Positions 22,649-45,044 of a stretch of 45,307 nucleotides of DNA are shown here, piece after piece. Within the stretch, counting starts at the first letter, position 1. Each line of letters starts with the position of its first letter. The notes beneath the pieces were generated by a model. It made no database searches. It worked only from the letters and a program-made list of their open reading frames with translations, and was not told the DNA's origin. Position numbers and translations under genes: made by a program. Origin of the DNA: Bordetella parapertussis (GTDB taxonomy: Bacteria; Pseudomonadota; Gammaproteobacteria; Burkholderiales; SG8-41); contig CAMDDY010000001.1 of assembly GCA_945893125.1 (NCBI GenBank), forward strand, positions 1 to 45,307, read 5' to 3'.

Positions 22649-23119
22649 TCAGCTAAACCGGATTTGGTTCATGTGCAGCCAGATTGCGAATGAGTCATAG
22701 GGTGTGACGAGCGGCTGCGTAAGAATCTCGGCACCGGTGAACGCTTTGAATTCCGCACCCTCGTGCAGCACAAACCGTGAAAATTCCTGATCCGACACTG
22801 GCACCACAAAATAGATGCGGTAAACCTTTTCCTGTTTCTTCCCCAGCCAGCTGAAATCGAAATCGAAGCGCGTAAATTCCCGTGCCTCGGTAACTTCGAA
22901 TTCAAGTTCTTCATGTAACTCCCGATACAGCGCCTGCAACGGCGCTTCGCCAGCGTTGACTGCGCCGCCGAAGCAGCCCCAATGATCCGGATAAAAAATA
23001 TGCGGAATATCGTCGCGCAGCTGCATAACGTAGTGGCCGTCTGGCATGACCAACAACGCGGCTACCGCGTCGTCGCCACGCAACTTGCCGGGGGCAGCGA
23101 TAAAAGTCGGCAGTGTCAT
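22649..23119 (-). CDS. Nudix hydrolase
   Basis: 156 aa. Nudix box G-AVNAG-E-APLQALY-RE-L-H-EE-LEF. Last gene of the minus-strand block. Confidence 0.8.
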   Translation of the reverse strand: MTLPTFIAAPGKLRGDDAVAALLVMPDGHYVMQLRDDIPHIFYPDHWGCFGGAVNAGEAPLQALYRELHEELEFEVTEAREFTRFDFDFSWLGKKQEKVYRIYFVVPVSDQEFSRFVLHEGAEFKAFTGAEILTQPLVTPYDSFAIWLHMNQIRFS

Positions 23120-23185
23120 GAAAGCGCGTGCGCGAAATGGAAGATTTGCGGTACCCGCGCGTGGCTATGCCAACCAGCGCGGGGA

Positions 23186-24106
23186 TCAGGCCAAGCCGAG
23201 CTTGGCTGAAATGGTCTTGAGATCAAGGCCGTGCGCCGCTTGCAATTCGGTATGGCTGCCATAGTTGTGAATAAACTCGTCCTGCAGAGCAAAGCTGTCG
23301 AGCTGGCATTTGGCACGGGTGTCCCACGCGATTTCTTTGATGCGCGGACCGAGGCCGCCATACGGGGCCATTTCCTCGATCACAATCACGCGTTTATGGC
23401 TGTGTAGCGCCTTGCTCACGCCCTCCACGTCCAACGGCTTTACCGTGTGCGCCGATACCAATGAAACGCTTTCCCCGCGTGCCTCGAATTTGGCGGCCAG
23501 ATCCGATCCGAGTTTGAGGATGGGGCCATAACCGATGATGCAGACATCGGCGCCGCGCTTGATATAACGCAACTTGCCGAATTCAAACGCGTCGATCGCC
23601 TTGGATGTGAGGTCTGGCTCGCCGGCTTTGCCCAAACGCAGATAAACCGGACCGCGTTCCTGTTTGATGCACCATAGCGTCGCCAAGCGCGCTTCGTGCG
23701 GATCGCACGGCGCGATCACTGCCATATTGGGGATCGCGCAGGCAACCGCCACATCCTCCTGCGCGTGATGCGTGCTGCCCAGCGTGGAATAGGTGATGCC
23801 GCCACCGATGCCGACAACTGTTACCGGCAGATTGTGGTAACAGAGATCGTCTCGCACAAACTCGAACGGGCGGAACAGCGTGAACGTCGCGATCGTGTAT
23901 GCAAACGGGCGCAGCCCGCGCAGCGCCATTCCAGCGCACAAACCGATCATAATCTGTTCGGCAACGCCGGTATTGATGAATCGGTCCGGAAACGTCTGCC
24001 GGAATTTGTCCATGGCGCCGGCGGGAGAAATGTCGGCAACCACCACGCACAGGCGCGGATCCTGCTGCCCTGCCTCGAAGAACGTATTGGCAAACATGTT
24101 TCTCAT
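23186..24106 (-). CDS. transketolase-family, C-terminal (pyrimidine-binding) subunit
   Basis: 306 aa. FINTGVAEQ, GSTHHAQEDVA and PVYLRLGK motifs are typical of split transketolase subunit B. Confidence 0.9.
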   Translation of the reverse strand: MRNMFANTFFEAGQQDPRLCVVVADISPAGAMDKFRQTFPDRFINTGVAEQIMIGLCAGMALRGLRPFAYTIATFTLFRPFEFVRDDLCYHNLPVTVVGIGGGITYSTLGSTHHAQEDVAVACAIPNMAVIAPCDPHEARLATLWCIKQERGPVYLRLGKAGEPDLTSKAIDAFEFGKLRYIKRGADVCIIGYGPILKLGSDLAAKFEARGESVSLVSAHTVKPLDVEGVSKALHSHKRVIVIEEMAPYGGLGPRIKEIAWDTRAKCQLDSFALQDEFIHNYGSHTELQAAHGLDLKTISAKLGLA

Positions 24107-24948
24107 GACGCCACCTCGGCCAACTCAGCCAACGCCTTCTGATACTCGTCTTTGTTCGGAGAACGATAGTGCCAGATCGGCACATGCTCCATGTACGACA
24201 CGCCCTTGCCTTTCACCGTTTTACCGACCACCATGAACGGTCGCTCGCCACTGCGTGTCGCCACCGCGCTGAATACTTCCGCTGCGTCGTGACCATTGAC
24301 CTCGACGGCTTCCCACCCGAAAGCCCGTGCCTTGTCCAACACGGGGTAAAAGTGCGGATGGGTTTCCGACGTGCGCCCCAGCCCCTGAAAATCATTCAGG
24401 TCGAGAAAAGCGACGAGATTATTCAGGCCGAGATTGGCGACCATCATCATTGCTTCCCACGTCGATCCTTCCTGCAGTTCGCCATCCGACAGCACTACAA
24501 AAACCTGCCGGTCGGTTTTTTTTATTTTTTCTGCATAGGCCATGCCCGCCGAGATCCCCATGCCATGGCCGAGCGAACCGGTGGATGCCTCGATCCCGGG
24601 CACCCCATAATCCGGGTGCGCACCAAGCTTGCCGAGCGGCGTGCAATACCGGTCAAGATCGTTCTTGGTGAGAATGCCAAAGTCCTCAAGAATCACGTAC
24701 TGCGAAAGGCAGCCGTGCCCCTTGGACATCACAAAACTGTCCTGCGTGCCGTTGCCCGAATGATCGCGGCGCATCAGCCCGTTGTAAATAACGTCGACCA
24801 TCTCCAGACAGGAAAACGCAGGCGCCACATGCAGCGCCGTCACCTGCTGCGAGATATCAAGGATGCGCCGCCGGTAGCGCAAGCAACGCTGGCGAGCGGC
24901 GACCGCATCAAAGTTCTCGCTACGCTGAACTCCCATGGTCCGCTGCAT
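24103..24948 (-). CDS. transketolase-family, N-terminal (ThDP-binding) subunit
   Basis: STGSLGHGMG and LSDGELQEGSTWEA (ThDP/Mg motif). Start set at ATG 24948, sharing 1 nt with the stop of the upstream SDR. ATGA overlap with subunit B. Alternative starts at 24978 and 24936. Confidence 0.85.
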   Translation of the reverse strand: MQRTMGVQRSENFDAVAARQRCLRYRRRILDISQQVTALHVAPAFSCLEMVDVIYNGLMRRDHSGNGTQDSFVMSKGHGCLSQYVILEDFGILTKNDLDRYCTPLGKLGAHPDYGVPGIEASTGSLGHGMGISAGMAYAEKIKKTDRQVFVVLSDGELQEGSTWEAMMMVANLGLNNLVAFLDLNDFQGLGRTSETHPHFYPVLDKARAFGWEAVEVNGHDAAEVFSAVATRSGERPFMVVGKTVKGKGVSYMEHVPIWHYRSPNKDEYQKALAELAEVAS

Positions 24949-25937
24949 TACGCGCGCAGCACGTAGTCCATCGGCCAATCACGTAACTGGTCGAGGTACT
25001 TGCGCGCCCAGGATGCCATTTCCTCCAAGCCATCTTCCCAGCCAATTTGCGGTTCCCAGCCAACGTCGCGCTTGATCGCACTCGAATCCAGCCAGTAACG
25101 CGAATCCTGACCGAGCCGGTCACCCGTCATCTCGCACAATTGATCGAATGGCATTTTCAGCGCCGCTGCGCACAGTTCCACCACGCGCTTAATCGAAGTC
25201 GGATCTTTGGGCCCCGCGTTGTAGACTGTCCCGAGCGGTGCTTTTTCATCAACCAGATGAATCGCACGTGCAAGATCCCGCGCGTGGATGTACGATTTTT
25301 CGGCACGGCCGCCGCCGTGCAAAGGCAGCCGCTTGCCAAGGAGTCCGCATACCAAGGTTTTCGGAATCACGCGGTGCAGCAACTGGCCCGGGCAGTAGGC
25401 GTTCGACGGTCGAATAATATTCATCGGGAATTTCAGGACCTTTGAAATCGACAACAAATGCATGTCGAATGCCGCTTTGGACGCCGCATATGGACTGGTG
25501 GGCTGCATCGGCGTATCTTCCTTCGCCGCAAAATCAACCGAGCCGTAAAGTTCGGAGGTCCCGATTTGAATAAAGCGCTCCATGTAGTCGCGCGACATCA
25601 ACTCTTCTGAAAACTTGGCAAGCGCCATTGAGTTTGTTTCGAAAAACCGCCAGGATTTTTTCCACGATACCGCACCTTCACCTTGCGCGGCATAATTGAT
25701 AATGACCTGCGGTTTCTCCTTGTCGAGCAACTCCATTACCGAGTCAAGTTCATGCGTAAGATGGAACGCATGGTACTGGTAATTTTTCCGCTTTTCGACA
25801 TTAAGCGAGAAAGGCTCTGGCCGCAACGGATTGCGGCCGACGCCAATGACCTTCTTGGGATCGGCATTGTCAAGCAGATACAGCGCGGTGTGGATCCCAA
25901 ACGATCCGCCAGCCCCGAAAATGGCGTAAGTTTTCAT
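24948..25937 (-). CDS. extended SDR, NDP-sugar 4,6-dehydratase-like
   Basis: 329 aa. Rossmann motif IFGAGGSFG, GTSELYG, and YAASKAAFD (YxxxK). Confidence 0.8.
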   Translation of the reverse strand: MKTYAIFGAGGSFGIHTALYLLDNADPKKVIGVGRNPLRPEPFSLNVEKRKNYQYHAFHLTHELDSVMELLDKEKPQVIINYAAQGEGAVSWKKSWRFFETNSMALAKFSEELMSRDYMERFIQIGTSELYGSVDFAAKEDTPMQPTSPYAASKAAFDMHLLSISKVLKFPMNIIRPSNAYCPGQLLHRVIPKTLVCGLLGKRLPLHGGGRAEKSYIHARDLARAIHLVDEKAPLGTVYNAGPKDPTSIKRVVELCAAALKMPFDQLCEMTGDRLGQDSRYWLDSSAIKRDVGWEPQIGWEDGLEEMASWARKYLDQLRDWPMDYVLRA

Positions 25938-25984
25938 TGAATTTTCGCTGCCTCTCCCTGAATTAAGGGCGCAAGTTTAATTAC

Positions 25985-26641
25985 TTATTCTAGTATCGTC
26001 CAGTACCAGTCGCCCGTGTAACCGGCTTCTTTAAATAGTTTGTTCCAACCATCCGGATAGTCGTGAAACTTGGCAGTCAACACCCACGACAAAAACAGCT
26101 CCCGCTGGGCTGGCGTTCGATACGAATCGACCTGAATGAAGCCACGGCCCGGCGCGAGACGCTCTACCTCTCGCACCGCACGTATTGCATCGTGACGCTC
26201 GAAGTTATGTATGGTATTGAGGGAGATCACTGCACTGAAGCTGTTGTCCGGAAATGGAAGTTTATCGCCACTGCCCAGATGCAGTCGCCCGACCACCTCC
26301 GGCTCGCAATGCATAAGCGCATATTCCGAGATATCCAGGCCGAATACTTCGAGTCCGGGACAGACTTTCAACAAATCCTTCACCAGGAACCCCTTGGCGC
26401 ATCCGACATCGAGCACGCGATCGCCGGGCTTGAGGCTGAAGTGCTTGATGATATCTTCGGCGATAGGTATCCAGCGTCCGTCGTAGCGATAACCGCCATA
26501 GCCGACCTCGCGCGGACCGTCGAAATACTGCTCTCCATATTGACGCGAAATTGCGATGTTCTCGGGTGTCTGCGCTTCCTTGCGCTTTTCAATATTGCGC
26601 TTGGACTTCGGCAACCGCGCCAGCAAATTGATTTCTGCCAT
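25985..26641 (-). CDS. class I SAM-dependent methyltransferase
   Basis: Trimmed to MAEINLL... at 26641, which shares 1 nt with the upstream stop. Motif I is RVLDVGCAKG. Confidence 0.8.
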   Translation of the reverse strand: MAEINLLARLPKSKRNIEKRKEAQTPENIAISRQYGEQYFDGPREVGYGGYRYDGRWIPIAEDIIKHFSLKPGDRVLDVGCAKGFLVKDLLKVCPGLEVFGLDISEYALMHCEPEVVGRLHLGSGDKLPFPDNSFSAVISLNTIHNFERHDAIRAVREVERLAPGRGFIQVDSYRTPAQRELFLSWVLTAKFHDYPDGWNKLFKEAGYTGDWYWTILE

Positions 26642-27528
26642 CAGATCTTCTCCTCGGATAACTTCATTGCCAGCGCCAGTCCCTCTTCCAGCGGCGTAAA
26701 CCGGAACGCGGGAAAAGCCTGGCGACATGCAGTGATATCGAAAAAGCGATGCACTAGGTGCGGGCGCGGTACGGTGCGCGGGTTCTCCTGGACCTTGACC
26801 TTGTTCCCGAACTGCGCCGCAATGATGTGAGCGATTCGGTTAAAAGATGTCGCCACCCCGGTTGCGGCATTGAGCGCGCCGCGGCTGCGGTGAAACAGCA
26901 TCAAACGCGCAATCTCTGCCAAATCATCCACGCTGATGTGATCGCGCTGCTCTTCACCCTCGCCGAACAGCGAAATCGCCTCGCCGCGCTGCGTCTGCCG
27001 CCGAAAACGATTCGGTCCGTAACCGTTATGCGGATCACCTGCACCGTAGATCAGTGTCGGGCGCAGCATGGCAGTCGGTGCCGTTACGGTGGTTTTGAGC
27101 ATCAACTCGCGTGCCGCGTGCATCATGCCGTGCAGCGTCGAGGGCGCACAGCAGGATTCTTCGGTGACGGGATTCGCATCATCGGCGTAGACAGCATCCG
27201 AGCTGATATAGAGCAAATGATGGATTGGCACCGCGGCGAGCGCCTCGCATACGGCCTCTGCCATCCGCAGGTTCTGCATCAGCATCGCAACGTTCTTGGC
27301 CGGTGCGATGGCCGACACCATGACAACGCTGTCATCCGGCCTTAACATGGATTTCAATTTCACTGCGGCGTCCACCGCCATCAGGTCGATTTGCCTGCGC
27401 GTCAACGCAAGTGTTTTGACATCGCATGCCAAGAGACACCGGTTGATAGCACCGCCCACAAAGCCGCCAGCTCCGATTACGATTACGCGTGATGGCTTGA
27501 CTGGCGCTGCGTTGAAATGTTCGAGCAT
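26641..27528 (-). CDS. atypical extended SDR (NAD-dependent epimerase/dehydratase fold, HxxxH instead of YxxxK)
   Basis: 295 aa. Rossmann motif VIGAGGFVGG and ISSDAVY. The expected P-x-x-x-Y-G-x-x-K segment reads PSTLHGMMHAARE. Confidence 0.75.
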   Translation of the reverse strand: MLEHFNAAPVKPSRVIVIGAGGFVGGAINRCLLACDVKTLALTRRQIDLMAVDAAVKLKSMLRPDDSVVMVSAIAPAKNVAMLMQNLRMAEAVCEALAAVPIHHLLYISSDAVYADDANPVTEESCCAPSTLHGMMHAARELMLKTTVTAPTAMLRPTLIYGAGDPHNGYGPNRFRRQTQRGEAISLFGEGEEQRDHISVDDLAEIARLMLFHRSRGALNAATGVATSFNRIAHIIAAQFGNKVKVQENPRTVPRPHLVHRFFDITACRQAFPAFRFTPLEEGLALAMKLSEEKI

Positions 27529-27543: not shown

Positions 27544-28827
27544 TTATGCGCCGTGCAGGCACGGCTTGCCTAACGTAAAGTATTCGAGCCCCGCTTCTTT
27601 GACACTTGCCTCGTCGAGCACGCGGTAAGGATCAATAATCGCTTTTCCCGCCAATCGGCTCCTAAGATCGGTCGGCTTCAGCTCGCGGAATGCCGGCCAC
27701 GGCGTCATGATCGCAATCACGTCGGCACCGTTCGCCGCATCCAGCGCCGACTCGAAACCGGCACAATTCGGGTGATCGACCACGTTCGCCAGCACCAACG
27801 GATCGAACACTCGCAACCGCCATGGCTTAAGGTGCGCGATCAACGCCAGCGACGGCGAATTCTTGGTCGAGTGGGTGTTTTCCTTGTACGCAAGGCCCAG
27901 CACGGCAATGACGGCATCCGGCTTGCGTGCGATGACTGCAGCATGCAACGTGCGCAATACCCAATGACGGCGGTGCCGGCTATTGCGCACGAAGGCCTGC
28001 ACCAGGCCCGCTTCTGTGCCGGTTTCCTGGCTCAACTGCAATACGGTCGCGAGGTCGCGCTCGAGGTTGCCGCCCGCCAAGCCGAGGCCGGGCGCGAGGT
28101 ATGCAAATTGACCGATACGGCGATCGAGCTTCAAGGCCGGCGCGATCTCGCTCCAGTCGGCGCCTATCCGTTCGCTGAGTTCCGCCAGCGTGTTTGCCAC
28201 GGTGACCGAAGCCACCAAGCAGCAGTTGATTGAAATTTTTGCAAGTTCGGCGCTTTCATACCGCATCGGCAGGAGGGGGCACGCGAACGCGGACAGAAAA
28301 GCGTTGTAATGCCTGGGCAGGGGCTGCATCGGATCGGCGCAACCCACGATAATGCGTTCTGGATGCATCGCGCGATCAAACGCACGGCCGAAAATCAGCG
28401 TCTCGACCTGATAATAAAGCCGTGCGCAATCGAACGTGAGGCTGCGCGTGAACCCGGGTGGGGCCTGGCACAGAATGACAAGCGTTGCCGCAGGCGCCAG
28501 TGCTGCCGCAACCGCGCCGATCAATGCCCTGATGCCGGCGAGATTGCTCTGCCCGCAGTCATCGGTCGGCACGTCGGCTGCGATGTATACCACGTCGCAG
28601 CGTGCAAGGTCGCGCTGATCGGCGGAATATCGGATGCGCCCAGCGTGCTGCCAAAGCATTTCCGGCAGATCCGGCTCGACCACGGGCAGGTCGCCCGCCG
28701 TGAGACGCGCAATGAGCGCTGAATCCGTATCGAAGCACACCGTATCAAAACCGCGTGCTGCACAAGCCGCTGCGGAATTGATGCCAAGATGCGTCATTCC
28801 TGCAAAGCCGACTACACTGCCGCTCAT
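27544..28827 (-). CDS. UDP-glucose/GDP-mannose dehydrogenase family protein lacking the catalytic cysteine
   Basis: Trimmed to MSGSVVGFAGMTHLG at 28827, giving an ATGA overlap with the upstream gene. Three-domain UGDH-like layout (VLGLAYKENT). The active-site motif reads GLGLAGGNLERD where the family has GxGxGGxC(L/F)PKD. Confidence 0.8.
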   Translation of the reverse strand: MSGSVVGFAGMTHLGINSAAACAARGFDTVCFDTDSALIARLTAGDLPVVEPDLPEMLWQHAGRIRYSADQRDLARCDVVYIAADVPTDDCGQSNLAGIRALIGAVAAALAPAATLVILCQAPPGFTRSLTFDCARLYYQVETLIFGRAFDRAMHPERIIVGCADPMQPLPRHYNAFLSAFACPLLPMRYESAELAKISINCCLVASVTVANTLAELSERIGADWSEIAPALKLDRRIGQFAYLAPGLGLAGGNLERDLATVLQLSQETGTEAGLVQAFVRNSRHRRHWVLRTLHAAVIARKPDAVIAVLGLAYKENTHSTKNSPSLALIAHLKPWRLRVFDPLVLANVVDHPNCAGFESALDAANGADVIAIMTPWPAFRELKPTDLRSRLAGKAIIDPYRVLDEASVKEAGLEYFTLGKPCLHGA

Positions 28828-36432: not shown

Positions 36433-37020
36433 CTACCACTTGGTAGCCTGCTGCTGCAGTATGGGATGGGAAACGAGGCAGTGCCAGACGACCGCCTGAA
36501 AAGCTTCCGTATGCGGAGTTACGTGCGCGGGATCAACGGTCGGAACAACTACGACGTGATCGCCAACCTTCTTGGTATAGCCACCATCGCGGCCGACGAC
36601 GCCGAAAATCTTCATACTACGTACTTTCGCGACTTCCAGCGCTCGCACAAGATTTGGACTGACGTGCTTTTCCAGATTACCGCCCCCCACGGAGAATATA
36701 AACACGCCATCCTTGTTGCACGCCTTGCTGGTTACCAGCCAGGCGGCAAAAACGGTTTCCCAACCTTCGTCATTGGTACGCGCAGTAAGTTCGGATACAT
36801 TATCCGTCGGGGCATAGGATTCAATACCACACAACTTGCGGAAGTCATTGACCGCGTGACTACAATTCCCCGCACTGCCACCAACGCCAAGAAAAAACAG
36901 CCTACCTCCTTCCGACCGAAGCTGAGCAAGGGCAGCGGCCATAGCCTCGATCGCAGAAACATCAAGCGTACGCGCAACTTCGGCAGCTTGATCCAGATAA
37001 GTTTTAACGTGGGAAGGCAT
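36433..37020 (-). CDS. gmhA: SIS-domain ketose-phosphate isomerase (sedoheptulose-7-phosphate isomerase-like, divergent)
   Basis: 195 aa. FFLGVGGSAGNCSHAVNDF, TNDEGWETVF and FSVGGGN align with GmhA motifs GNGGSHCDAMHF / GNDFGFNDIF / STSGNS. Confidence 0.75.
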   Translation of the reverse strand: MPSHVKTYLDQAAEVARTLDVSAIEAMAAALAQLRSEGGRLFFLGVGGSAGNCSHAVNDFRKLCGIESYAPTDNVSELTARTNDEGWETVFAAWLVTSKACNKDGVFIFSVGGGNLEKHVSPNLVRALEVAKVRSMKIFGVVGRDGGYTKKVGDHVVVVPTVDPAHVTPHTEAFQAVVWHCLVSHPILQQQATKW

Positions 37021-37176: not shown

Positions 37177-38376
37177 TCAGCGGCCTCTCCGGTTATGCAA
37201 AGGTCGCAGTTCTTGAATCATTCTGGCCGCACGCTGCGGGACGCGGTTCTTCAATTCTGATACAAGGTTGCGCCAAGGCACACGTCGCAAATGTACCTTG
37301 TCTGCCAGATCAAGCTGAAGTATCGGGTAGACCAAGGGTGCTGTTTTCTTTTCAACGGCAGACCAACTGCTGCCAAGTTCTCCTGAATGCAGTTTTATCG
37401 CTCTCGTAAAAAAGAGCCGGTGCAACGGATTGACGAGTGGCGAATAAGCCATCCCCTGTATATTTGCTATGTTTGGAGCGTTAGGCGTCAATGCAGCGAA
37501 TCTTTCGTCTCTACCTGTGAGAGAAAAAATCAACAGGTTATCCGAGTCCGTCTCAACGTGTATCTGTTCCCAGTCGGTTACGCTATACCCAAGAAAGTCC
37601 CCGTCGATGGTCGAAACCTCGAGGCTGGGGAAATCCTTTGCTCCGCGCATCGATACCAACATCGGGTGCAGATGGAACGCCCGTATCAACAGCCCCGTAT
37701 CTCCTGGCACGTTCCACGTGCACATATGGGGATGCACGGTAAATTGCGGGTGCTCCCAGTTATATCTCTGCACTTCCAAATGCAAGTGGCGCATACCAAA
37801 CTCGACCAGTTCGCGCCCGGAAAATGTGAGCGGGCCATCTCCGTCTAACTTGCCAGTTTGCTTAAGTTCTTCGTAAACGCTCTCCTGTATCAGCCTGAGC
37901 CCGGGTGTCATAACCGCCTGCTTGCCCGCTCTGGCCATCTGCTCCAAATGCCTGAAAGACCCATCCGATATCAGACAATCAGGACAAAGGTACACACAAT
38001 ATCCATCACCTTGGGCAGCAATCTCCGCTGCTGCGCGGTGCCCGCGGGCAGCCTTCAGATGGTAGGGAATGTTCTGTCCCATCCACGGCGAATCAACAAA
38101 TACCGGCTCGATGACCATGCACAGCTTTTTAAAAATCGGAGCGGCCTCGATACGCACGCGATCTGCTGGCGTGGTAAGGATCAGGAAGCGCGATTCCTTC
38201 AGGTTTGATAGCGCCGGTAGATTACCCGGGGACATGAACGTTGGTAGTGCGATGTCAAGGAACATATCGACATAGCTTTCGCCCCAGACCACCATTACAT
38301 AAAAGAACGGCAATGCCGTGTCGACTGAAGGCTGACCCATGTGCGCGCTATCGTTCATCTGTCCATTTCGTTGCAT
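37177..38376 (-). CDS. uncharacterised protein, paralog A (candidate novel glycosyltransferase)
   Basis: 399 aa. No family recognised. Clear homology to ORF 42185..43675 (segments listed in the findings). Start could be M7 or M13. Confidence 0.7.
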   Translation of the reverse strand: MQRNGQMNDSAHMGQPSVDTALPFFYVMVVWGESYVDMFLDIALPTFMSPGNLPALSNLKESRFLILTTPADRVRIEAAPIFKKLCMVIEPVFVDSPWMGQNIPYHLKAARGHRAAAEIAAQGDGYCVYLCPDCLISDGSFRHLEQMARAGKQAVMTPGLRLIQESVYEELKQTGKLDGDGPLTFSGRELVEFGMRHLHLEVQRYNWEHPQFTVHPHMCTWNVPGDTGLLIRAFHLHPMLVSMRGAKDFPSLEVSTIDGDFLGYSVTDWEQIHVETDSDNLLIFSLTGRDERFAALTPNAPNIANIQGMAYSPLVNPLHRLFFTRAIKLHSGELGSSWSAVEKKTAPLVYPILQLDLADKVHLRRVPWRNLVSELKNRVPQRAARMIQELRPLHNRRGR

Positions 38377-38535: not shown

Positions 38536-39543
38536 TCATATCTTACGTGCAATTAACGCCACGCCATTGCCCTGATCATTGAAATGTTCGAATTCCATTC
38601 CCGCCGCCACCACCATCTTGCGCAACTCATCAATCGAATGAAACAGAACGTGGGCCGGGAAATACGCATTCCAGTTATTCACCACATGCCGCGTGAACGG
38701 CAATTCCGGATTATAAAACAGCTTCATAAAGTGATAGTAGAAGAATCTCTGTAAATCGTAATTACCAGCCTTAATTCCCAGAAAAGGGATGTCCTCGGGA
38801 ACATCGATAGTCTGCTTCAATTCGCCCAAAGCTATCCCCAGTTTGGTCAGCGGCTTCATCGCTTCGAAGGCTTCGTCCGGCGCCATCTTTGAAATCACCG
38901 AACGTATGTAGTCGTCGGTGACCTGGCGAATCGGCTTCTGTTGCTGGTAGACCCATGAAATAATCCGGCCGCCCTTTTTTAGCACCCTGGCCAGATCCTT
39001 GAGCGCAGCCCCCATGTCCGGCGTGTAGTGCAGGACACCCGGACAGAAAACAAAGTCGGCCGACGCAGCTGGAAAGGGCAGGCTTTCAATCTTTGCTTGC
39101 ACAAGACCAACCACCATGTTTTCTTTGGCGAAATCCTGTTTGGCCTGTTCGATGGCCAAAGACATATCAATAGCGATATACCTCGTCTTGCGCAGGGAGT
39201 CTCCGAAATAAGCGCGCCCTGCAATGCCCGAGCCACAGCCGATATCGAAGACCACGTCATTTGCTTTGACTTCTTTCTGCACGCGCTTCTGATAATCCGG
39301 AAACATGACTTCGAACAATTCCTGCTGAAACTTGAAGCTCGGCGCATCGTCGTATGCCCCGGGCATGCGCCAATGAAGACCGTAGAACGCCGAAAGCGGA
39401 TCCTCTTTTTCCATCAAAGAGGCCTGCCTCAAGACCCCGTCGCGCACCACGAACGCGGTGTCGTTTACTTTGATCGCGCCGCCCTCTGCAGGCAACTTTT
39501 GACCAAGAGCGCTTTCAACTACGGAGAGAGACATCTGTGACAT
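38536..39543 (-). CDS. class I SAM-dependent methyltransferase
   Basis: 335 aa. Motif I is VVFDIGCGSGIAG, and LKKGGRI is the post-II motif. Confidence 0.8.
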   Translation of the reverse strand: MSQMSLSVVESALGQKLPAEGGAIKVNDTAFVVRDGVLRQASLMEKEDPLSAFYGLHWRMPGAYDDAPSFKFQQELFEVMFPDYQKRVQKEVKANDVVFDIGCGSGIAGRAYFGDSLRKTRYIAIDMSLAIEQAKQDFAKENMVVGLVQAKIESLPFPAASADFVFCPGVLHYTPDMGAALKDLARVLKKGGRIISWVYQQQKPIRQVTDDYIRSVISKMAPDEAFEAMKPLTKLGIALGELKQTIDVPEDIPFLGIKAGNYDLQRFFYYHFMKLFYNPELPFTRHVVNNWNAYFPAHVLFHSIDELRKMVVAAGMEFEHFNDQGNGVALIARKI

Positions 39544-39864
39544 GTTTTCTGGTGTCCTTTCGGGTTATCGAGATTTTACTGAGATTCGCGTTATTCAGTG
39601 CTAACAATCTGGCGTCATCGCGCGATGTGGCGCTCAGATTTTTCCATTGTATTTCCGCTTTCGTGGGAATGGCAAGGTTGCAGAAATTTTGTACACACCT
39701 GCGCGAGTGTCAACAGTCGTCGAAAAAATATCAGATACCAGAGGAATGGCATTATTGAATCAGGAGCAATGCATGGTGCAAAAAAAATTGACGTCACTAA
39801 CCTACCATTGGCAGTTTGACTTACGGCGCAGTCCGGCGAGAAAATCGCTTCCAAAAACCCTTGG

Positions 39865-40923
39865 TTACGCCATCGCGCCCTCAGTGATTTGAGGCGGTGC
39901 AGGGTGTCCGCCCAACAGCTTGCCCTGCCAGTTAGTCAGCCGGGCAATTTTGTTGTAATAGGTAAATTCTGGCGATTTGCGGATCAACAGGCCGTCACGC
40001 ATCTCTTCCTCGAAGGAGTGCTGTGCCCAACCATTGCACGGCTTGCAAAACGGCACTTTGTCCCACTGATCGGTTTCATGGTAATAGCGAAGTTTCGCAA
40101 ACTCTTCACCCTGCCATACCGCCTTGACACCATTTTCAAACACATTGCCCAGATTCGTGGCTTTGAAGCCGTCAAGGCAGCAGACCGTTACTTTCCCGTC
40201 ATTATGGATAGGCATCGTGTTGTAGATAGCGGGGCAAGGCAGGCGCTTTTCGGGAGTCGCCATGTCTGGATAGCTGCCATTCAGAAATATCAATCCGATG
40301 CGCACGACGTCCACGACACCGACCCAACGCGCAACGAACGCATCAGTCTCATGGCGATTGTCATCCTGCTTAGTAAAAGACACCCCGATACGCGGATGGA
40401 TCGCGTCGCCCCGCACCTTGAGCATTCTGAATACGGAACGTTCTATGCGTTCCAGCTTGTGAATGCCGCGAACTTTCTTCAGTGTCTCGCGCGTTACGGC
40501 ATCAACGCTGAACATCACGGAATCCACTTTCTGCTCAACGAAAAATTGCGCCAAGTCTTCATCGAGCGTAAGGCCGTTGGTGTTCATGGCCACCGACATC
40601 CCACCCGCTTTCATCTTTGTGATCTGCTCCCGCAGGTTGGGGGCGAGCAGCGGCTCGCCATACATATTCGGCTGAATCAGTGGCTTTGCCGCCATCAATT
40701 CATCAAGAATCTTGCGCGACCCCTCGAAGTCCATGACCCCGGCTACAGAGTCGGATTCGTTTTCTTCCGAACCCCAGACGGGGCACATCGGGCAGCGAAG
40801 ATTGCATTTGGTGGCAAGATCAAGCAGCACTCGCGGTGGCAACTCGGGTACGGGCAGCGGCGTCCATTTGTGCTTGGGGTCAACCCAGCTTGCTGTAGAC
40901 CAGTCACGCATGAAGAGCTCCAT
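39865..40923 (-). CDS. radical SAM enzyme with truncated SPASM/twitch-like C-terminal Cys motif
   Basis: 352 aa. CNLRCPMC (CxxxCxxC) at residues 40-47. C-terminal CPAIYNTMPIHNDGKVTVC (C-x12-G-x4-C) and CKPC. Confidence 0.85.
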   Translation of the reverse strand: MELFMRDWSTASWVDPKHKWTPLPVPELPPRVLLDLATKCNLRCPMCPVWGSEENESDSVAGVMDFEGSRKILDELMAAKPLIQPNMYGEPLLAPNLREQITKMKAGGMSVAMNTNGLTLDEDLAQFFVEQKVDSVMFSVDAVTRETLKKVRGIHKLERIERSVFRMLKVRGDAIHPRIGVSFTKQDDNRHETDAFVARWVGVVDVVRIGLIFLNGSYPDMATPEKRLPCPAIYNTMPIHNDGKVTVCCLDGFKATNLGNVFENGVKAVWQGEEFAKLRYYHETDQWDKVPFCKPCNGWAQHSFEEEMRDGLLIRKSPEFTYYNKIARLTNWQGKLLGGHPAPPQITEGAMA

Positions 40924-41022
40924 TTGTTACCATATGTCGCATTAGCAAGAATAGCCGTTCGGCCTCATTCATTCGAGTAAATAGCTGAGTTTTATATATT
41001 ATAAGTGGAATAGGCAGCGATT

Positions 41023-42180
41023 TTACGCCCGTGGAATGCCGTACGCCACCGTTTCAATCACGCCCCCATCATGCTGGCGCAGATACAGACGGTAATCCGG
41101 ATCGATTTTCCGGAACGCAAAAGGCACCTCCCATAGATCGGAAGGCCGATGATAGGCCGAGATCGCGAGCCTGGGATGCCAGCGGCGGATCGACTCCGCG
41201 CCTCCGCGCAAGGCGTCGAGTTCGGCCCCTTCGATGTTCATTTTGATGAAGCTTACGCGCTGTCCGGCAAGAATTTCGTCGAGACCCACGACGTTAATCC
41301 TGCATTCTCCATCGTCGGAGATAATTGCGCCCCGTGACCCATCGTTGTTAAATCGCAATTCTGCCTTGGCGCTGTGCAAACCGTAATTGAGCGGCTCTAC
41401 TCGCGGTAAAGCCGCGAGGTTTTTTTGCAGGCGCTTGAATGTCTGCGGATCGGGTTCGAATGCAAGGACGCGTTCGTACTTGCCATGAACGTGGTCGATA
41501 AACATGCGCACAGAATCGCCGTCGTATGCCCCGCCATCCACATACACTTCGTCATCCTGGAATTCAACCAATCCGGAAAACCCGTAAAGGTCCCAATCAA
41601 TAACTTCCGCCAGCAATGCGGCATCGAGCGTTAAACGATATCCCAGGACGCGATCAAGGACTCTCACCGACTCTTCATCATGGAGTTGTTCGGCCAGTTC
41701 CAGGTAGCGCGGCCGATTGTTGAAGATATCGTCAACAAAACCGTCATAAAACATGTGCGGCTGAAACATATCCGGAGCAAGTACCTGAAGCAAAGCAAAA
41801 GGCGCAACCGGAAATCCCATCGCCCGCAACATCAGCGTGCCGCCGAGCACTCTGTGGGATGCAATGATGACCGGCACCGACCGATCGAGCGACCCGATTG
41901 CGTCTGACGGAACGACCCGATGTTTCCCAATGGCAAGGCCGCGTTTACCAGCGTCATTATCGTACACACCTGCCACCTCTATGCCCTGTTTGGCACAAAT
42001 CTCTGCCAGACGCCTGCCCTCGGCACCAGCGCCAAGAATAGCAAGACGTTCGGGAAGCCCGCGACGCATAAATGGGTAGCGCTCACGCAACGAATCCTTC
42101 AGCGATTGCAGCGAAGGGATCCTCGATATTTCGTGCAGCCACCTTTGGCTTGACGCATGGTCAGTGTTTAACTTATTCAT
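41023..42180 (-). CDS. FkbM-family methyltransferase with N-terminal Rossmann-like domain
   Basis: Trimmed to MNKLNTDH... at 42180, 4 nt after the upstream stop. N-terminal LAILGAGAEGRRLA. C-terminal FkbM-like VYVDGGAYDGDS...IKMNIEGAELDAL. Confidence 0.8.
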   Translation of the reverse strand: MNKLNTDHASSQRWLHEISRIPSLQSLKDSLRERYPFMRRGLPERLAILGAGAEGRRLAEICAKQGIEVAGVYDNDAGKRGLAIGKHRVVPSDAIGSLDRSVPVIIASHRVLGGTLMLRAMGFPVAPFALLQVLAPDMFQPHMFYDGFVDDIFNNRPRYLELAEQLHDEESVRVLDRVLGYRLTLDAALLAEVIDWDLYGFSGLVEFQDDEVYVDGGAYDGDSVRMFIDHVHGKYERVLAFEPDPQTFKRLQKNLAALPRVEPLNYGLHSAKAELRFNNDGSRGAIISDDGECRINVVGLDEILAGQRVSFIKMNIEGAELDALRGGAESIRRWHPRLAISAYHRPSDLWEVPFAFRKIDPDYRLYLRQHDGGVIETVAYGIPRA

Positions 42181-42184
42181 AACG

Positions 42185-43675
42185 CTATTTTTCTCTGACG
42201 ACAATCGAGATTTTCCCCTCCCGCTCGTTGCTGCTTCCACCGACGTAACGATTATTCCCCTCGGCGCTTCCCGCACGAGCCTGGAACAAGCGTATGCGCT
42301 TCAATATCGGCCGAACATAACGTTTTGGTACAAATTTCAATATTAGAACAAGCCATTGACGCCCCAAGCTGCCAAGCACGGGCCCAACCCACCATCCAAA
42401 GACAGCTCGCAGGATTCGGCTCCTAGCCCTAAGCAGCGCGGCAATAATAATCCGAGGAAATCTCTGGATTTTCGACTTAATGACCATGAAAAAAAGCCCT
42501 GCGACGCTACTTGGATAGTTATTCCAATAGTCTTTATGTCGTTGAAAAATATCGAGATAAACACGCTGGCCAAACCGCTCGATATTTCCCATTGCTATGG
42601 CTCGTTCAACTATTGCGCTAGACGTTTTCGCCATTTCGATCGATTCTGGCGCCAATCCGTCGCCATGAATATGGCAAGGCAGCCGATAAGCCAACCGTCT
42701 AAATTCGTCGCACCCCTGACTGAATAGATAACGGTTTATTTCGTAAATTCGATTCTCTTTGCCACGGAAACTGCTGTTTATGGGCCGATCCTGGAAAGGC
42801 AAATAAGTAAGTTCGGATTCCGGCGTTAGTGATAAGTAAAATACTTCATCTGAATCGGTAGAATAATACAAATCTTCCTTAAGACTTCCCTGATAGAAGG
42901 TGTTGTAAATATATTTACCGTCTGTGGTGTCGTTGTCGAGAACATCATCATTGTAGTTTGGGACCTTGGCGAAATCTCCAAACAATAAGCCCCAGCTCAT
43001 GCTATGAATGACAATTGCTTTTCGTTCCGGTACTGGCCAGTAGCACCACAATGGATAGTCACCAAAATATGGCGCGTCAAACTCATAGCTACGAATTTCG
43101 GAATGTAATGAGCGCCGCGCCAATTCGGCCAGGAAGCGCGGCTTAAGATCCATTGGATCATCAGGCCGCAAGAAACCCTGCGCCTCAAGCGATTCCACAA
43201 CAGGCTCTGTCGCATAGCGAAACACTGGGGCCAGAACAGCTTTTTTTCCTTGCCTTGCTTTATCAATAATAAAGGCAATCGTCCCGTCCGAAACCAGTAA
43301 ATCGGGCGCGACGAAGCCGGCCCATGCCCGGTCTGCTAGCGCTTTTCGCGCTGCGAGACGATGTCCTGTCGACATATGCAACATCACTCGATGCCTGCCG
43401 GTTATCTCAGCCGATAGCGCCTTATTCTCATCAGGGTATCCAATATCAATGAGTACGGGCTCTACATATTGGCGCATTTGCTCAAACAATGGCCGACCTT
43501 CCAGCGCGTTCCAGTCGTCCCTCGTCGTAGAGATTAGGAATTTGGAACCGGGCACGCCACGCAATATAGGGAGATTGTTTGGCGAAAGCAAAGAACTTAG
43601 GCAAAAGGAATAAAAATGCTCTGTGAAGAGCTTCCCCCAGAAAGTAATCATCAGGTAATACGGACTCGAACTCAT
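42185..43675 (-). CDS. uncharacterised protein, paralog B, with basic/hydrophobic C-terminal extension (candidate novel glycosyltransferase)
   Basis: 496 aa. Homologous to ORF 37177..38376 over ~290 aa. Visibly AT-richer than its neighbours. Confidence 0.7.
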   Translation of the reverse strand: MSSSPYYLMITFWGKLFTEHFYSFCLSSLLSPNNLPILRGVPGSKFLISTTRDDWNALEGRPLFEQMRQYVEPVLIDIGYPDENKALSAEITGRHRVMLHMSTGHRLAARKALADRAWAGFVAPDLLVSDGTIAFIIDKARQGKKAVLAPVFRYATEPVVESLEAQGFLRPDDPMDLKPRFLAELARRSLHSEIRSYEFDAPYFGDYPLWCYWPVPERKAIVIHSMSWGLLFGDFAKVPNYNDDVLDNDTTDGKYIYNTFYQGSLKEDLYYSTDSDEVFYLSLTPESELTYLPFQDRPINSSFRGKENRIYEINRYLFSQGCDEFRRLAYRLPCHIHGDGLAPESIEMAKTSSAIVERAIAMGNIERFGQRVYLDIFQRHKDYWNNYPSSVAGLFFMVIKSKIQRFPRIIIAALLRARSRILRAVFGWWVGPVLGSLGRQWLVLILKFVPKRYVRPILKRIRLFQARAGSAEGNNRYVGGSSNEREGKISIVVREK

Positions 43676-43769
43676 CGCGCGTCAAAAACCCATTTCCAGC
43701 TCAACGTGCAGAAAGAAACATAGTTACGGGCTTCATTACGTAAAGCTTCATCTCATGCCCTCTTCGCAA

Positions 43770-45044
43770 TCACGCGGAGCGAATGGAAATTGTGAGCTTA
43801 CGTTTACCGGAAACGCCGAGTGCCCGGTCAACCTTGATCAAGGCGGCAACGGTATCTGCCGCTTCTTCTTCGGTATAGTTCTCGTTGACATAAAGGCAAA
43901 AGCTGCGGTCGCGGTTGCTGACCGCCTGCGGCGTGCCAAATGCGTCGGCGAGATGCGGACGCACCCAGGGCCACTCGGACACCACATATTGATAGTGCGG
44001 GTTGAGACCGATGCCTTCAGCAAGCACAGCCTTGGCAATCGAGATCTTGTCGCACGTCGCGCGCGCCGGGTCTACAAATACCGGCAATATGAATGGCGAA
44101 TCAGTCGGGCGCCATGGCAACAGCGAGAACATGGTATTGGTTTCTACCAGCATCGATGCCAACTCCGATACGAATGCCGCCCGCCGCACGATGGTATCGC
44201 GCAGACGGCGTAGGGAGGCGATCCCGATGGCGCATGACAATTCGTCGTTGTTCCAGTTAAGCGCAGGGAACAGGAACGTCTCGGGATTGCGATCGTCGAA
44301 GTCCGGCTGCCAACGCGGCTTACCGCGGTCGGCATGCGCCAGTGCGTTGCGAAAGATGTCCAAGTCCCGGGAATAGACAATGCCGCCGCAGCCGCCGCTC
44401 ATATGGCCTTTACGGTACATGGTCGAGAACGCGGCAATATCCCCGAACGTGCCAACCTGGCGTCCGAATATCTGCGCGCCGTGCGATTGGCTGCAATCTT
44501 CGATGACGCGTACTCCGCGCGCATGCGCCTCGGCAACGATGCGATCGACATCCGTGGCTTGCCCGGTGGCATGAACCACCAGCACCGCGGAAACCGCGGG
44601 TGTCATGCGCGCCAGCACCTGCTCGACACCCATGTTGTAGTCGTCGGGACGCGTATCCGCCAAACGCGGCCGTAATCCATTCAGAATAATCGCACTGATG
44701 CAACCGGGATCAGTAATCGGCGAGACGATAACTTCGCTGCCTTTGGGTAAATTCAGGGCGGCAATGGCAAGATAAACGGAAGCGGTTCCGGTGGAAACCG
44801 AATCCGCATAGCCGCCACCCATCATGGCAACAAACTCGTCTGTATAGCGCTTCTCGAACGGCCCCTGGTACCCCGGATCCACATCTTTGCCGCGATAGAA
44901 CTCAATCGCCTCTTCGAGCATCGCGACCTCGGCATCGCCGAACGCAAACCTTGGCGGCATGGGATGCGTCCGCACCGGCTGCCCGCCGTCCACCGCGAGC
45001 TTCTTGTCTGCAATGCGGTTTTCCAGATCTGTCGTTCCTATCAT
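43770..45044 (-). CDS. DegT/DnrJ/EryC1/StrS-family PLP-dependent sugar aminotransferase
   Basis: 424 aa. DSVSTGTASVYLA and the FSTMYRKGHMSGGCGG lysine region. First gene of the minus-strand block. Confidence 0.85.
   Translation of the reverse strand: MIGTTDLENRIADKKLAVDGGQPVRTHPMPPRFAFGDAEVAMLEEAIEFYRGKDVDPGYQGPFEKRYTDEFVAMMGGGYADSVSTGTASVYLAIAALNLPKGSEVIVSPITDPGCISAIILNGLRPRLADTRPDDYNMGVEQVLARMTPAVSAVLVVHATGQATDVDRIVAEAHARGVRVIEDCSQSHGAQIFGRQVGTFGDIAAFSTMYRKGHMSGGCGGIVYSRDLDIFRNALAHADRGKPRWQPDFDDRNPETFLFPALNWNNDELSCAIGIASLRRLRDTIVRRAAFVSELASMLVETNTMFSLLPWRPTDSPFILPVFVDPARATCDKISIAKAVLAEGIGLNPHYQYVVSEWPWVRPHLADAFGTPQAVSNRDRSFCLYVNENYTEEEAADTVAALIKVDRALGVSGKRKLTISIRSA

Follow-up and report, generated by a model that had tools for sequence, protein, structure and literature searches.

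A 22-gene block with a conserved 14-gene sugar module and two predicted GT-A-fold proteins, a probable ABC-transporter-dependent surface-glycan locus

Results

A co-directional block of 22 genes on a 45-kb contig

The window analysed here appears to be an entire metagenome-assembled contig of 45,307 bp (NCBI GenBank assembly GCA_945893125.1, contig CAMDDY010000001.1, listed as Bordetella parapertussis, GTDB lineage Bacteria; Pseudomonadota; Gammaproteobacteria; Burkholderiales; SG8-41), and our subject is a block of 22 open reading frames (ORFs) at 22649-45044 that probably constitutes a surface-glycan locus served by an ATP-binding cassette (ABC) transporter. We number the block genes m1 (22649) to m22 (45044; Table 1). 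Families were assigned by Pfam and NCBIfam profile searches of all 22 proteins, and the searches reproduced the inventory that an earlier note had drawn up from the letters alone: two exporter genes (Wzm and Wzt), 13 sugar enzymes, three methyltransferases, one radical S-adenosylmethionine (SAM) enzyme with a SPASM domain, one Nudix hydrolase, and two proteins without a match. The 13 sugar enzymes are two transketolase halves, four short-chain dehydrogenases/reductases (SDRs), a UDP-glucose dehydrogenase (UGDH)-like protein, a Gfo/Idh/MocA oxidoreductase, a cytidylyltransferase-PfkB fusion, a transaldolase, a GmhB-like HAD phosphatase, a SIS isomerase and a DegT aminotransferase. No Pfam or NCBIfam glycosyltransferase (GT), WecA/WbaP, Wzx, Wzy or WaaL model was matched by any of the 22 block proteins.

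Table 1. Genes of the glycan block, listed from its first gene to its last, followed by other features of the window. Starts are the refined ones described in the text; aa, amino acids.
Gene	Assignment	Coordinates	Strand	Evidence
m22	DegT/DnrJ/EryC1 pyridoxal-phosphate aminotransferase, first block gene	43770..45044	-	Pfam PF01041, E 1e-48
m21	Unnamed-family paralogue 2, 496 aa, predicted GT-A fold	42185..43675	-	AlphaFold2 + Foldseek
m20	FkbM methyltransferase with extra N-terminal domain	41023..42180	-	Pfam PF05050, E 1e-17
m19	Radical SAM enzyme with SPASM auxiliary-cluster domain	39865..40923	-	Pfam PF04055 + PF13186
m18	Class I SAM methyltransferase	38536..39543	-	Pfam Methyltransf_11, E 2e-19
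m17	Unnamed-family paralogue 1, 399 aa, predicted GT-A fold	37177..38376	-	AlphaFold2 + Foldseek
m16	SIS-domain ketose-phosphate isomerase, distant GmhA relative	36433..37020	-	Pfam SIS_2, 27.4 bits vs cut-off 27
m15	Wzm, ABC-2 permease of polysaccharide exporter	35499..36296	-	Pfam ABC2_membrane
m14	Wzt, ABC ATPase, 253 aa	34717..35478	-	Pfam ABC_tran; L007 orthologue 252 aa
m13	GmhB-like HAD-IIIA sugar-bisphosphate phosphatase	34126..34677	-	TIGR01656 + TIGR01662 above cut-offs
m12	Transaldolase (Staphylococcus/Coxiella type)	33350..34105	-	TIGR02134, 351 bits vs cut-off 282
m11	Extended SDR epimerase/dehydratase/reductase	32324..33319	-	Pfam Epimerase, E 2e-35
m10	Extended SDR, GalE/UXS/4,6-dehydratase-like	31326..32327	-	Pfam Epimerase, E 5e-57
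m9	Cytidylyltransferase-like (N-terminal) + PfkB kinase (C-terminal)	29773..31329	-	PF01467 at 37-129, PF00294 at 203-499
m8	Gfo/Idh/MocA oxidoreductase, 310 aa	28824..29756	-	Pfam PF22725, PF01408, PF02894
m7	UDP-glucose/GDP-mannose dehydrogenase family, no catalytic Cys	27544..28827	-	PF03721, PF00984, PF03720
m6	SDR epimerase/reductase	26641..27528	-	Pfam Epimerase, E 2e-24
m5	Class I SAM methyltransferase, 218 aa	25985..26641	-	Pfam Methyltransf_11
m4	SDR resembling dTDP-glucose 4,6-dehydratase	24948..25937	-	Best PDB matches all dTDP-glucose 4,6-dehydratases
m3	Split transketolase, N-terminal (thiamine diphosphate-binding) subunit	24103..24948	-	Pfam Transketolase_N, E 7e-29
m2	Split transketolase, C-terminal subunit	23186..24106	-	Best PDB match 6yaj
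m1	Nudix hydrolase, last module gene	22649..23119	-	Pfam NUDIX, E 4e-11
	Divergent ORF, runs off contig end	45267..45307	+	
	GC-rich hairpin, 8 bp	45064..45083		
	UGDH-family dehydrogenase retaining Cys (GGHC)	20287..21573	+	
	The same dehydrogenase with an SDR epimerase	20287..22627	+	
	Class II aldolase-SDR fusion (659 aa), PNP_UDP_1 phosphorylase, phosphoribosyltransferase, IF-2B-family isomerase	15610..20186	+	
	rmlB, rmlA, rmlC, rmlD	11978..15370	+	
	GT9 heptosyltransferase	10834..11796	-	
	WaaA (GT30)	9569..10855	-	
	Thiamine pyrophosphate riboswitch	6735..6834	-	RF00059, 69.6 bits
	thiC	4813..6684	-	

The block's co-directionality, as the same note had described it, was confirmed, with all 22 ORFs on the minus strand and free of internal stops in both the ORF list and the translations, and the six gene overlaps reported there are all real on that strand: four are ATGA overlaps (32324-32327, 31326-31329, 28824-28827 and 24103-24106) and two are overlaps of a single nucleotide (TGATG at 26641 and TAATG at 24948). 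Three of the junctions (28824-28827, 26641 and 24948) need an internal ATG instead of the start of the longest ORF, and internal starts are backed by orthologue lengths of 310 aa for the Gfo protein, 427 aa for the UGDH-like protein, 218 aa for the methyltransferase and 252-253 aa for Wzt. Longest-ORF starts were overlong in several genes and were refined by orthologue lengths and ribosome-binding sites, which placed the starts of m8 at 29756 (310 aa), m7 at 28827 (427 aa), m5 at 26641 (218 aa), m3 at 24948 (281 aa), m20 at 42180 (385 aa) and Wzm at 36296 (265 aa); Wzt begins at a TTG at 35478 (253 aa) that is preceded by a GAGGAGGA ribosome-binding site.

The downstream half of the block, m13 to m1, is tightly packed. 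In the upstream half, m16 to m22, intergenic gaps measure 94-321 nucleotides (nt) and the GC content is 0.53 as against 0.57-0.58, with m21 the lowest of the block at 0.48; given these gaps and the lower GC, the block may comprise more than one transcription unit. The largest gap (39544-39864, 321 nt, between m18 and the radical SAM gene m19) contains, on the minus strand, two matches resembling sigma-70 promoters, at 39713-39686 and 39675-39646, and an internal promoter there is possible.

The first gene of the block starts only 263 nt from the end of the contig. Approximately 220 nt of non-coding DNA lie upstream of m22 and are followed by a divergent plus-strand ORF that starts from the ATG at 45267 and begins MIINMDESKLRTI, which places the 5' end of the block inside the contig. 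The contig may break off there in a mobile element or repeat, and the loss of the upstream neighbourhood would then be explained. An RfaH ops element (GGCGGTAG) was not found by eye in the 220 nt upstream of m22. The hairpin listed in Table 1 is flanked by an A-run and a T-run and stands 20 nt ahead of the start codon of m22; it resembles an intrinsic terminator on the plus strand and falls within the 5' leader of the block on the minus strand.

Fourteen of the block genes travel as one module

A set of 14 genes, m16 and then m13 down to m1, forms a conserved module in the order SIS isomerase, GmhB-like phosphatase, transaldolase, SDR, SDR, cytidylyltransferase-PfkB fusion, Gfo, UGDH-like, SDR, methyltransferase, 4,6-dehydratase-like SDR, transketolase N-terminal subunit, transketolase C-terminal subunit and Nudix; in the window, Wzm and Wzt are inserted between the SIS and phosphatase genes. 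Comparison with loci fetched from other genomes (given L numbers below) showed the module to be colinear, at 55-90% amino-acid identity, in L009 (GCA_964433345.1) and L010, and L007 keeps the gene order as far as its contig edge. Partial modules are found in L004 (a Legionellaceae metagenome-assembled genome), L008 (Labrys okinawensis, CP178864.1, around 2.47-2.50 Mb), L011 and L012, that of L004 being an SDR/kinase/Gfo/UGDH core with no transaldolase, SIS or GmhB gene within 10 kb. Since the same order recurs at 55-90% identity in unrelated contigs, the grouping of these genes is not due to chance. The tailoring capacity that had looked far larger than any nameable O-antigen sugar would need is largely this single module, joined by a variable set made up of the DegT aminotransferase, the FkbM methyltransferase, the radical SAM enzyme and a methyltransferase.

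Individual genes bear out the conservation. The m16 counterpart is the first module gene in L009, L010 and L012, the transaldolase adjoins the GmhB-like gene in L007, L009, L010 and L012, and a Nudix gene is the last of the module in L009 and L010 and an internal one in L011 and L012. Orthologues are 69-91% identical for m11, 58-83% for m5 (218 aa in L008 and L009, 233 aa in L010), and 72-86% for m4 across Alpha-, Beta- and Gammaproteobacteria. m9 has more than 6,700 homologues; identity is 79% or higher for each of the best 120, Sulfuricaulis and Burkholderiales among them, and the best 120 matches of the Labrys m4 orthologue, at 77-89% identity, include Methylocystis, Methylobacterium, a Coxiella metagenome-assembled genome, Rhodospirillaceae and Stellaceae. 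Members of the variable set also recur: the m22 orthologue, 75-77% identical, adjoins a gene of the m17/m21 family in L003 and L007; m20, whose score of 71.9 bits is above the cut-off of TIGR01444, has a 50%-identical orthologue in L007; and the m19 counterpart is a neighbour of FkbM in L007 and part of an acetyltransferase fusion in L011. m19 and m11 reach no NCBIfam equivalog, and the m22 translation carries the Lys of the FS..x..K motif.

Our literature searches yielded no account of a locus in which transketolase, transaldolase and heptose genes occur together with Wzm. The module is widely conserved across Alpha-, Beta- and Gammaproteobacteria, with 77-90% identity for several of its enzymes, and apparently undescribed, and known pathways do not reveal its chemistry.

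The enzymes of the module depart from their textbook relatives

The heptose-pathway-like proteins fall far short of their equivalog thresholds. m16 scores 48 bits against NCBIfam gmhA (TIGR00441, cut-off 209); m9 reaches 127 bits with rfaE domain I and 90 with domain II (cut-offs 345 and 181) and 148 against the HldE equivalog (cut-off 521), and its domain order, PF01467 followed by PfkB, is the reverse of that in HldE; m13 scores 133 bits against the GmhB equivalog NF006506 (cut-off 178). These scores and the reversed order of m9 argue that the module is not the housekeeping ADP-heptose route. The organism presumably has a separate core-heptose pathway, given the GT9 heptosyltransferase and WaaA genes elsewhere on the contig.

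Among the oxidoreductases, m7 has the three-domain UGDH architecture and just reaches the cut-off of TIGR03026 (189.9 vs 189.8), yet it reads GGNLERD where GGSCFPKD is expected, with an Asn aligned to the catalytic Cys of the structures 4a7p and 3gg2. This Cys-to-Asn change is kept in the L004 and L007 orthologues (51% and 80% identity), and a second UGDH-family gene in the window (Table 1) retains the Cys. In UGDHs the second oxidation, which yields the acid, depends on the catalytic Cys, whose loss should halt the reaction at a two-electron oxidation. Lacking it, m7 is expected to perform a two-electron oxidation and to yield no uronic acid by the canonical mechanism. The ATGA overlap that couples m8 and m7 in translation suggests that the UGDH-like and Gfo enzymes act together. 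The SDRs resemble several families: the best PDB relatives of m10 are UDP-glucose 4-epimerases and a UDP-GlcA decarboxylase, m6 gives only weak NCBIfam matches of a heptose-epimerase/GDP-fucose-synthase-like kind, and m4 scores 162 bits against TIGR01181 (cut-off 365).

The two transketolase halves carry the Pfam domains Transketolase_N, Transket_pyr and Transketolase_C. m3 scores 208 bits against the NCBIfam transketolase model and shows the SDG...N cofactor motif in its translation, and the best PDB match of m2 is a genuine split transketolase, that of Carboxydothermus (6yaj). In m2, however, iGggitystLgstHh replaces tHaGltvgeDgasHq, so that the motif retains its third His but has Gly for the first His and Leu for the Asp, and the His-to-Gly and Asp-to-Leu changes are shared by three orthologues (L008, L009 and L012). 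We take the lost residues to be the counterparts of yeast His469 and Asp477, which bind the acceptor phosphate and 2-hydroxyl. The transketolase always follows an m4-type 4,6-dehydratase-like SDR, with overlapping stop and start codons.

In L011 (3821-9485), one ORF fuses an SDR domain to Transketolase_N and another joins an aminoglycoside N-acetyltransferase domain to radical SAM and SPASM domains; a frameshift seems to interrupt the gene for the transketolase C-terminal half of this locus, possibly owing to long-read assembly errors. If real, the fusions tie the 4,6-dehydratase-like SDR functionally to the transketolase. Taken together, the missed equivalogs, the reversed HldE order, the Asn of m7 and the Gly and Leu of the transketolase bear out the suspicion that the sugar pathway is a non-textbook one.

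Two unmatched proteins are predicted to adopt the GT-A fold

The two proteins without a match, m17 and m21, are paralogues of each other (30% identity over 287 aa, E 5e-42). Neither gave a Pfam match at E<=1 or any NCBIfam match, phmmer found no PDB match, and a profile of 44 family sequences found no GT in the PDB. Models were built with AlphaFold2 from the family alignment and reached a predicted local distance difference test (pLDDT) score of 91.4 and a predicted template modelling (pTM) score of 0.86 for m17, and a pLDDT of 82.9 for m21. When these models were compared with the PDB using Foldseek, all 50 matches listed for each were GT-A-fold proteins, and all were glycosyltransferases save four to the lysyl hydroxylase LH3, a protein with a GT-A domain of its own. 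The matches include TarP, SpsA, RmlT, AvpGT, the chondroitin polymerase K4CP, the cellulose synthase BcsA, hyaluronan synthase and WrtF, with listed probabilities of 0.84-1.00 (best 1.00) and E values of ~1e-5 to 1e-3.

The predicted topology of m17 (strand 24-29, helix, strand 63-67, helices, strand 90-94, helix, strand 126-130) follows the beta1-alpha-beta2-alpha-beta3-alpha-beta4 order of the GT-A nucleotide-binding half. An invariant Asp lies just after beta4 (D133 in m17, D125 in m21; consensus LxPDxxxSDG), and D133, three residues past strand 126-130, occupies the position where the DxD motif normally sits. Other family-invariant residues are W31, G32, R161, H199, D258 and D277, partly in the C-terminal half, where H199, D258, D277-S-D and H330 are conserved. 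In m21, approximately residues 360-475 are modelled as low-confidence helices rich in basic and hydrophobic residues, and this tail may be a membrane-association element. On these models, m17 and m21 are predicted to be very divergent GT-A-fold glycosyltransferases of a large unnamed family. The statement that the block holds no recognisable GT thus stands at the level of named sequence families (Pfam at E<=1, NCBIfam and PDB), the profile searches having placed neither protein in a described GT family, whereas at the level of fold it fails, both being predicted GT-A-fold proteins.

A large unnamed family that recurs beside ABC exporters

An exhaustive search with the family profile returned 5,003 cluster representatives (50% identity) at E<=1e-3 and 2,640 at E<=1e-30. 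A word-indexed protein search had suggested a tiny family of 65 relatives, none of them functionally annotated, and the profile search showed this small size to be an artefact of sensitivity. Many members are 700-2,300 aa long and carry two tandem copies of the domain, an arrangement known from bifunctional polysaccharide polymerases. Most of 39 long members examined have no Pfam domain at all; the fusions among them are to Glycos_transf_2 (two), GT41 (one), a sulfotransferase (one), methyltransferase domains (one) and TPR repeats (two).

The family hidden Markov model was also run over all fetched loci. Two copies each were found in the window, L003, L004 and L007, two fused in a single 804-aa ORF in L006, one each in L002, L008, L010 and L011, four to six in L012, and none in L009. 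Family members adjoin Wzm and/or Wzt in the window, L004, L006, L007 and L011, and they lie in or beside the sugar module in seven of the ten loci examined, a small sample (the window, L004, L007, L008, L010, L011 and L012), those of L012 being interleaved with the module genes. At 8096-10001 of L012, which is a metagenome contig, a DDE transposase (ISAZ013 type) stands between two fragments that match adjacent parts of the family profile, so that an insertion sequence has apparently split one family copy; L012 also has four intact copies and another split copy.

The exporter and its genomic neighbourhood

Both exporter proteins are most like galactan exporters, at scores below the equivalog cut-offs: the only NCBIfam match of Wzm (m15) is the galactan exporter Wzm/RfbD (258 bits, cut-off 380) and the best of Wzt (m14) is the galactan exporter Wzt/RfbE (272 bits, cut-off 400). 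Wzt consists of the nucleotide-binding domain only, with no C-terminal glycan-binding domain; as a bare ATPase of 253 aa it has no end-cap-recognising domain of the Escherichia coli O9a kind, and the locus resembles the O2a-type subclass. A lack of Wzx and Wzy is the defining trait of the ABC-transporter pathway, and WecA and WaaL are usually encoded elsewhere in well-studied ABC-dependent O-antigen systems. That the block matches none of WecA/WbaP, Wzx/Wzy and WaaL, as the earlier note had observed, is correct and also normal for a locus of this type, a contig of 45 kb cannot show WecA and WaaL to be absent from the genome, and the conclusion that the locus is unusual on that account does not follow.

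Lipopolysaccharide (LPS) genes occupy 9569-15370 of the window, where WaaA overlaps the GT9 heptosyltransferase gene and rmlB, rmlA, rmlC and rmlD follow (Table 1). These WaaA, GT9 and rml genes lie 8-13 kb from the block, and rml genes also abut the module in L009. We infer that O-antigen is the most economical reading of the destination of the glycan.

Between the rml genes and the block lies a set of plus-strand genes headed by the aldolase-SDR fusion. Speculatively, its PNP_UDP_1, phosphoribosyltransferase and IF-2B genes are of a methylthioadenosine-salvage type and would recycle SAM by-products beside the methyltransferases and the radical SAM enzyme. The Cys-keeping UGDH-family gene and its SDR epimerase neighbour converge on the block, with stops 21 nt apart, and are probably a separate uronic-acid sugar pathway. 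Further away, the thiamine pyrophosphate riboswitch, the sole Rfam match in the window, stands directly upstream of thiC.

Discussion

Together, these data make it probable, in our judgement, that the block serves the synthesis of a surface glycan exported by an ABC transporter, with O-antigen as the likeliest product, and that it combines the 14-gene module, the variable tailoring set and the predicted GT-A-fold proteins with their exporter. From the observed gene content, predicted folds, residue substitutions and synteny we infer the substrates, the step order, the GT activity of m17 and m21 and the O-antigen destination as follows, the order of steps being modelled on the ADP-heptose and GDP-octose routes. 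The transaldolase, possibly also the transketolase, would supply a C7 or C8 ketose phosphate that the SIS isomerase would convert to the aldose; the PfkB domain of m9 would phosphorylate C1, the GmhB-like phosphatase would take off the distal phosphate, and the cytidylyltransferase-like domain of m9 would form the nucleoside diphosphate (NDP)-sugar. Four SDRs and a methyltransferase would then remodel the NDP-sugar, while the Gfo and Cys-less UGDH-like enzymes would carry out a two-electron oxidation to an aldehyde or ketone, with no uronic acid formed. To the oxidised sugar the atypical split transketolase would probably add a two-carbon unit, outside the pentose-phosphate pathway, and the Nudix enzyme would probably hydrolyse or proofread the NDP-sugar. 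A DegT aminotransferase, an FkbM methyltransferase, a radical SAM/SPASM enzyme and a second methyltransferase would form the variable tailoring set. Finally, m17 and m21, cytoplasmic and membrane-associated, would extend the chain on its lipid carrier, which an enzyme encoded outside the block would have primed, and Wzm/Wzt would export the finished chain. The elongating role is proposed mainly because polymerases of ABC-dependent polysaccharides are usually laid out in this way, as paired or tandem GT modules next to the exporter.

On this model the module probably yields a heptose- or octose-derived sugar of seven or more carbons, possibly chain-extended or branched: in our working scheme, an NDP-activated C7/C8 sugar would be oxidised and would gain two carbons as an extension or a branch; reduction or epimerisation and methylation would follow, and in this locus an amino group would be added. 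The original proposal of a structurally unusual monosaccharide with non-canonical polymerising enzymes is a reasonable one and has been strengthened in part, with the correction that the enzymes in question are, by prediction, of the GT-A fold. A literature check found no described locus of this kind and no solved glycan structure for it, and the synteny comparison found the module colinear in other genomes.

Several observations weigh against this model. The 45-kb contig carries no initiating transferase or ligase, and promoter and terminator scans came out at or below shuffled expectation and lend no support to a single operon. The transketolase and transaldolase could merely raise the supply of sedoheptulose-7-phosphate. 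No sequence or profile link joins m17 or m21 to any characterised GT in Pfam, NCBIfam or the PDB; their Foldseek TM-scores are low (0.25-0.40); m17 aligns over ~150-160 N-terminal residues, its C-terminal half having no solved counterpart; and the family has no true DxD, its one invariant Asp after beta4 being accompanied by no second. As to synteny, L003 and L006 have family members with no sugar module within 10 kb, and L009 (392-4593, minus strand) pairs the module and Wzm with two other proteins that lack Pfam matches, of 890 and 509 aa, which are unrelated to the m17/m21 family by hmmsearch --max and hhalign. The pairing of module and family is thus frequent and not obligatory, and the two L009 proteins may be another unrecognised type of transferase.

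Comparison with characterised systems places the locus in a familiar class with unfamiliar parts. Like the Klebsiella pneumoniae O2a galactan and mycobacterial galactan systems, it has an adjacent permease and short Wzt, no Wzx/Wzy, and sugar-nucleotide genes co-directional with those of putative cytoplasmic transferases, the initiator and ligase being presumably encoded elsewhere; it differs from them in exporter scores below the equivalog cut-offs, in candidate transferases of no named GT family and in a far larger sugar pathway. With GT2-type GT-A enzymes (TarP, SpsA, RmlT and K4CP), m17 and m21 share the predicted N-terminal alpha/beta/alpha core and the acidic residue after beta4, and the two-domain tandems of the family resemble bifunctional polymerases; no sequence or profile similarity was detected, however, the single Asp stands in a P-D context, and the C-terminal half is distinct. 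The ADP-L-glycero-D-manno-heptose pathway (GmhA, HldE, GmhB and HldD) has in common with the block its isomerase, PfkB kinase, HAD-IIIA phosphatase and nucleotidyltransferase chemistries, whereas the reversed fusion order, the dedicated transaldolase and transketolase and ten further tailoring genes set the block apart.

A parallel in enzyme content is the GDP-octose to GDP-lincosamide pathway of lincomycin and celesticetin, in which a C8 sugar is built from a transaldolase product by a route that comprises the LmbR transaldolase, LmbN isomerase, LmbP kinase, LmbK phosphatase, LmbO nucleotidyltransferase, LmbL dehydrogenase, LmbM epimerase, LmbZ oxidoreductase and LmbS aminotransferase (PMC4351081, PMC12945683). 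Compared by class only, these nine enzyme classes find a one-to-one match in the block. The nucleotidyltransferase here is, in contrast, of HldE type, LmbO being recorded as a guanylyltransferase (PMC4351081), the product would enter an exported polymer and not an antibiotic, and the block has an extra transketolase, SDRs and methyltransferases. For the transketolase itself there is a parallel in the branching of LPS sugars by thiamine diphosphate (ThDP) enzymes of the YerE type and in transketolases proposed to add hydroxyacetyl to keto sugars in miharamycin and amipurimycin (PMC12247030). As in YerE/ErwE-type branching, the ThDP enzyme here is the direct neighbour of a 4,6-dehydratase-like SDR, and the locus is of LPS type; YerE-type enzymes, however, belong to the decarboxylase superfamily and not to the transketolases, and the activity is suggested here solely by the conserved active-site substitutions. 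We know of no transketolase with demonstrated activity on an NDP-sugar in polysaccharide biosynthesis.

A bolder version of the model would have the module make a branched or carbocyclic C8-C10 sugar, lincosamine-, caryose- or bradyrhizose-like, its backbone assembled through carbon-carbon bonds of the transaldolase (C3) type, the transketolase (C2) type or both, and have it polymerised by a dedicated new GT-A family; the Cys-less UGDH-like and Gfo enzymes would create the carbonyl, and the transketolase would add a two-carbon unit at the level of the NDP-sugar. We put this forward tentatively and regard it as rather doubtful. An 11-gene sugar operon with a dTDP-glucose-4,6-dehydratase-like gene has been proposed for bradyrhizose (PMC4743980); Bradyrhizobium is not among the best 120 matches of the Labrys m4 orthologue, and that lead is neither supported nor excluded. 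A further lead, to the virenose and dihydrohydroxystreptose of Coxiella, was dropped, no paper having been found that links those loci to a transketolase.

We think it less likely, although a live alternative, that the sugar is not exotic at all and that the block instead holds two or three ordinary pathways, such as those for a 6-deoxy-heptose, a 4-amino-4,6-dideoxy sugar and O-methylation, with the transketolase, transaldolase and Nudix proteins as helpers in sedoheptulose-7-phosphate supply and nucleotide recycling. Every enzyme class in the block is indeed common in O-antigen loci, the transaldolase passes a housekeeping-type equivalog cut-off, the solved structure most like the transketolase is a genuine split transketolase, and the L004 core does without transaldolase, SIS and GmhB within 10 kb. 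Separate ordinary pathways would, however, sit uneasily with 14 genes that travel as one colinear, highly conserved unit, with a UGDH-like enzyme lacking the canonical means to a uronic acid, with the conserved loss of the acceptor-binding His and Asp in the transketolase, and with the failure of every heptose-pathway-like enzyme to attain its equivalog threshold.

It is quite improbable, to our minds, that the chain is built by ordinary GT2 or GT4 enzymes encoded elsewhere, leaving m17 and m21 with an accessory part (side-branch addition, capping or an adaptor function) or with none in sugar transfer. The contig is only 45 kb of a genome, the L010 module lies ~5 kb from GT4 and GT9 genes, L009 has the module without the family, and the missing DxD motif would fit such a role; two copies per locus and tandem fusions nevertheless recur, in the window, L004, L007 and L011 no transferase candidates other than family members stand between Wzm/Wzt and the sugar genes, and ABC-dependent loci normally encode their own elongating transferases.

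Least likely of all is a product other than O-antigen, be it a polymer of capsule type, a glycolipid or a glycan linked to protein, that leaves through a Wzm/Wzt-type exporter. In its favour, WaaL and WecA are not on the contig, Wzt lacks a glycan-binding domain of the O9a type, Labrys (L008) has a fused MsbA-like ABC transporter in place of Wzm/Wzt, and ABC-2 exporters also serve teichoic acids, capsules and mycobacterial galactan; against it, the window carries WaaA, GT9 and rmlBADC on the same contig, rml abuts the module in L009, and no KpsC/S/D/E-type capsule genes were seen in the window.

To return to the ABC-dependent O-antigen locus that we favour, its cluster type is familiar, and it is the GT-A-like family and the 14-gene module that appear undescribed. 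Neither Pfam nor NCBIfam has a model for the family, which counts approximately 5,000 representatives and has no solved relative; in glycan loci with ABC exporters it turns up repeatedly, mostly in pairs or tandem fusions. Characterising the family and the module would extend the list of glycosyltransferase families and would probably bring to light a bacterial monosaccharide not seen before, and it might yield the first transketolase demonstrated on a nucleotide sugar in polysaccharide synthesis. Should the C8-C10 reading be true, there would be a new sugar class and a new family at the level of CAZy, both widespread in environmental Proteobacteria. Labrys okinawensis, as a cultured host, offers an experimental entry point, and with such a characterisation thousands of 'hypothetical proteins' in LPS loci would become annotatable.

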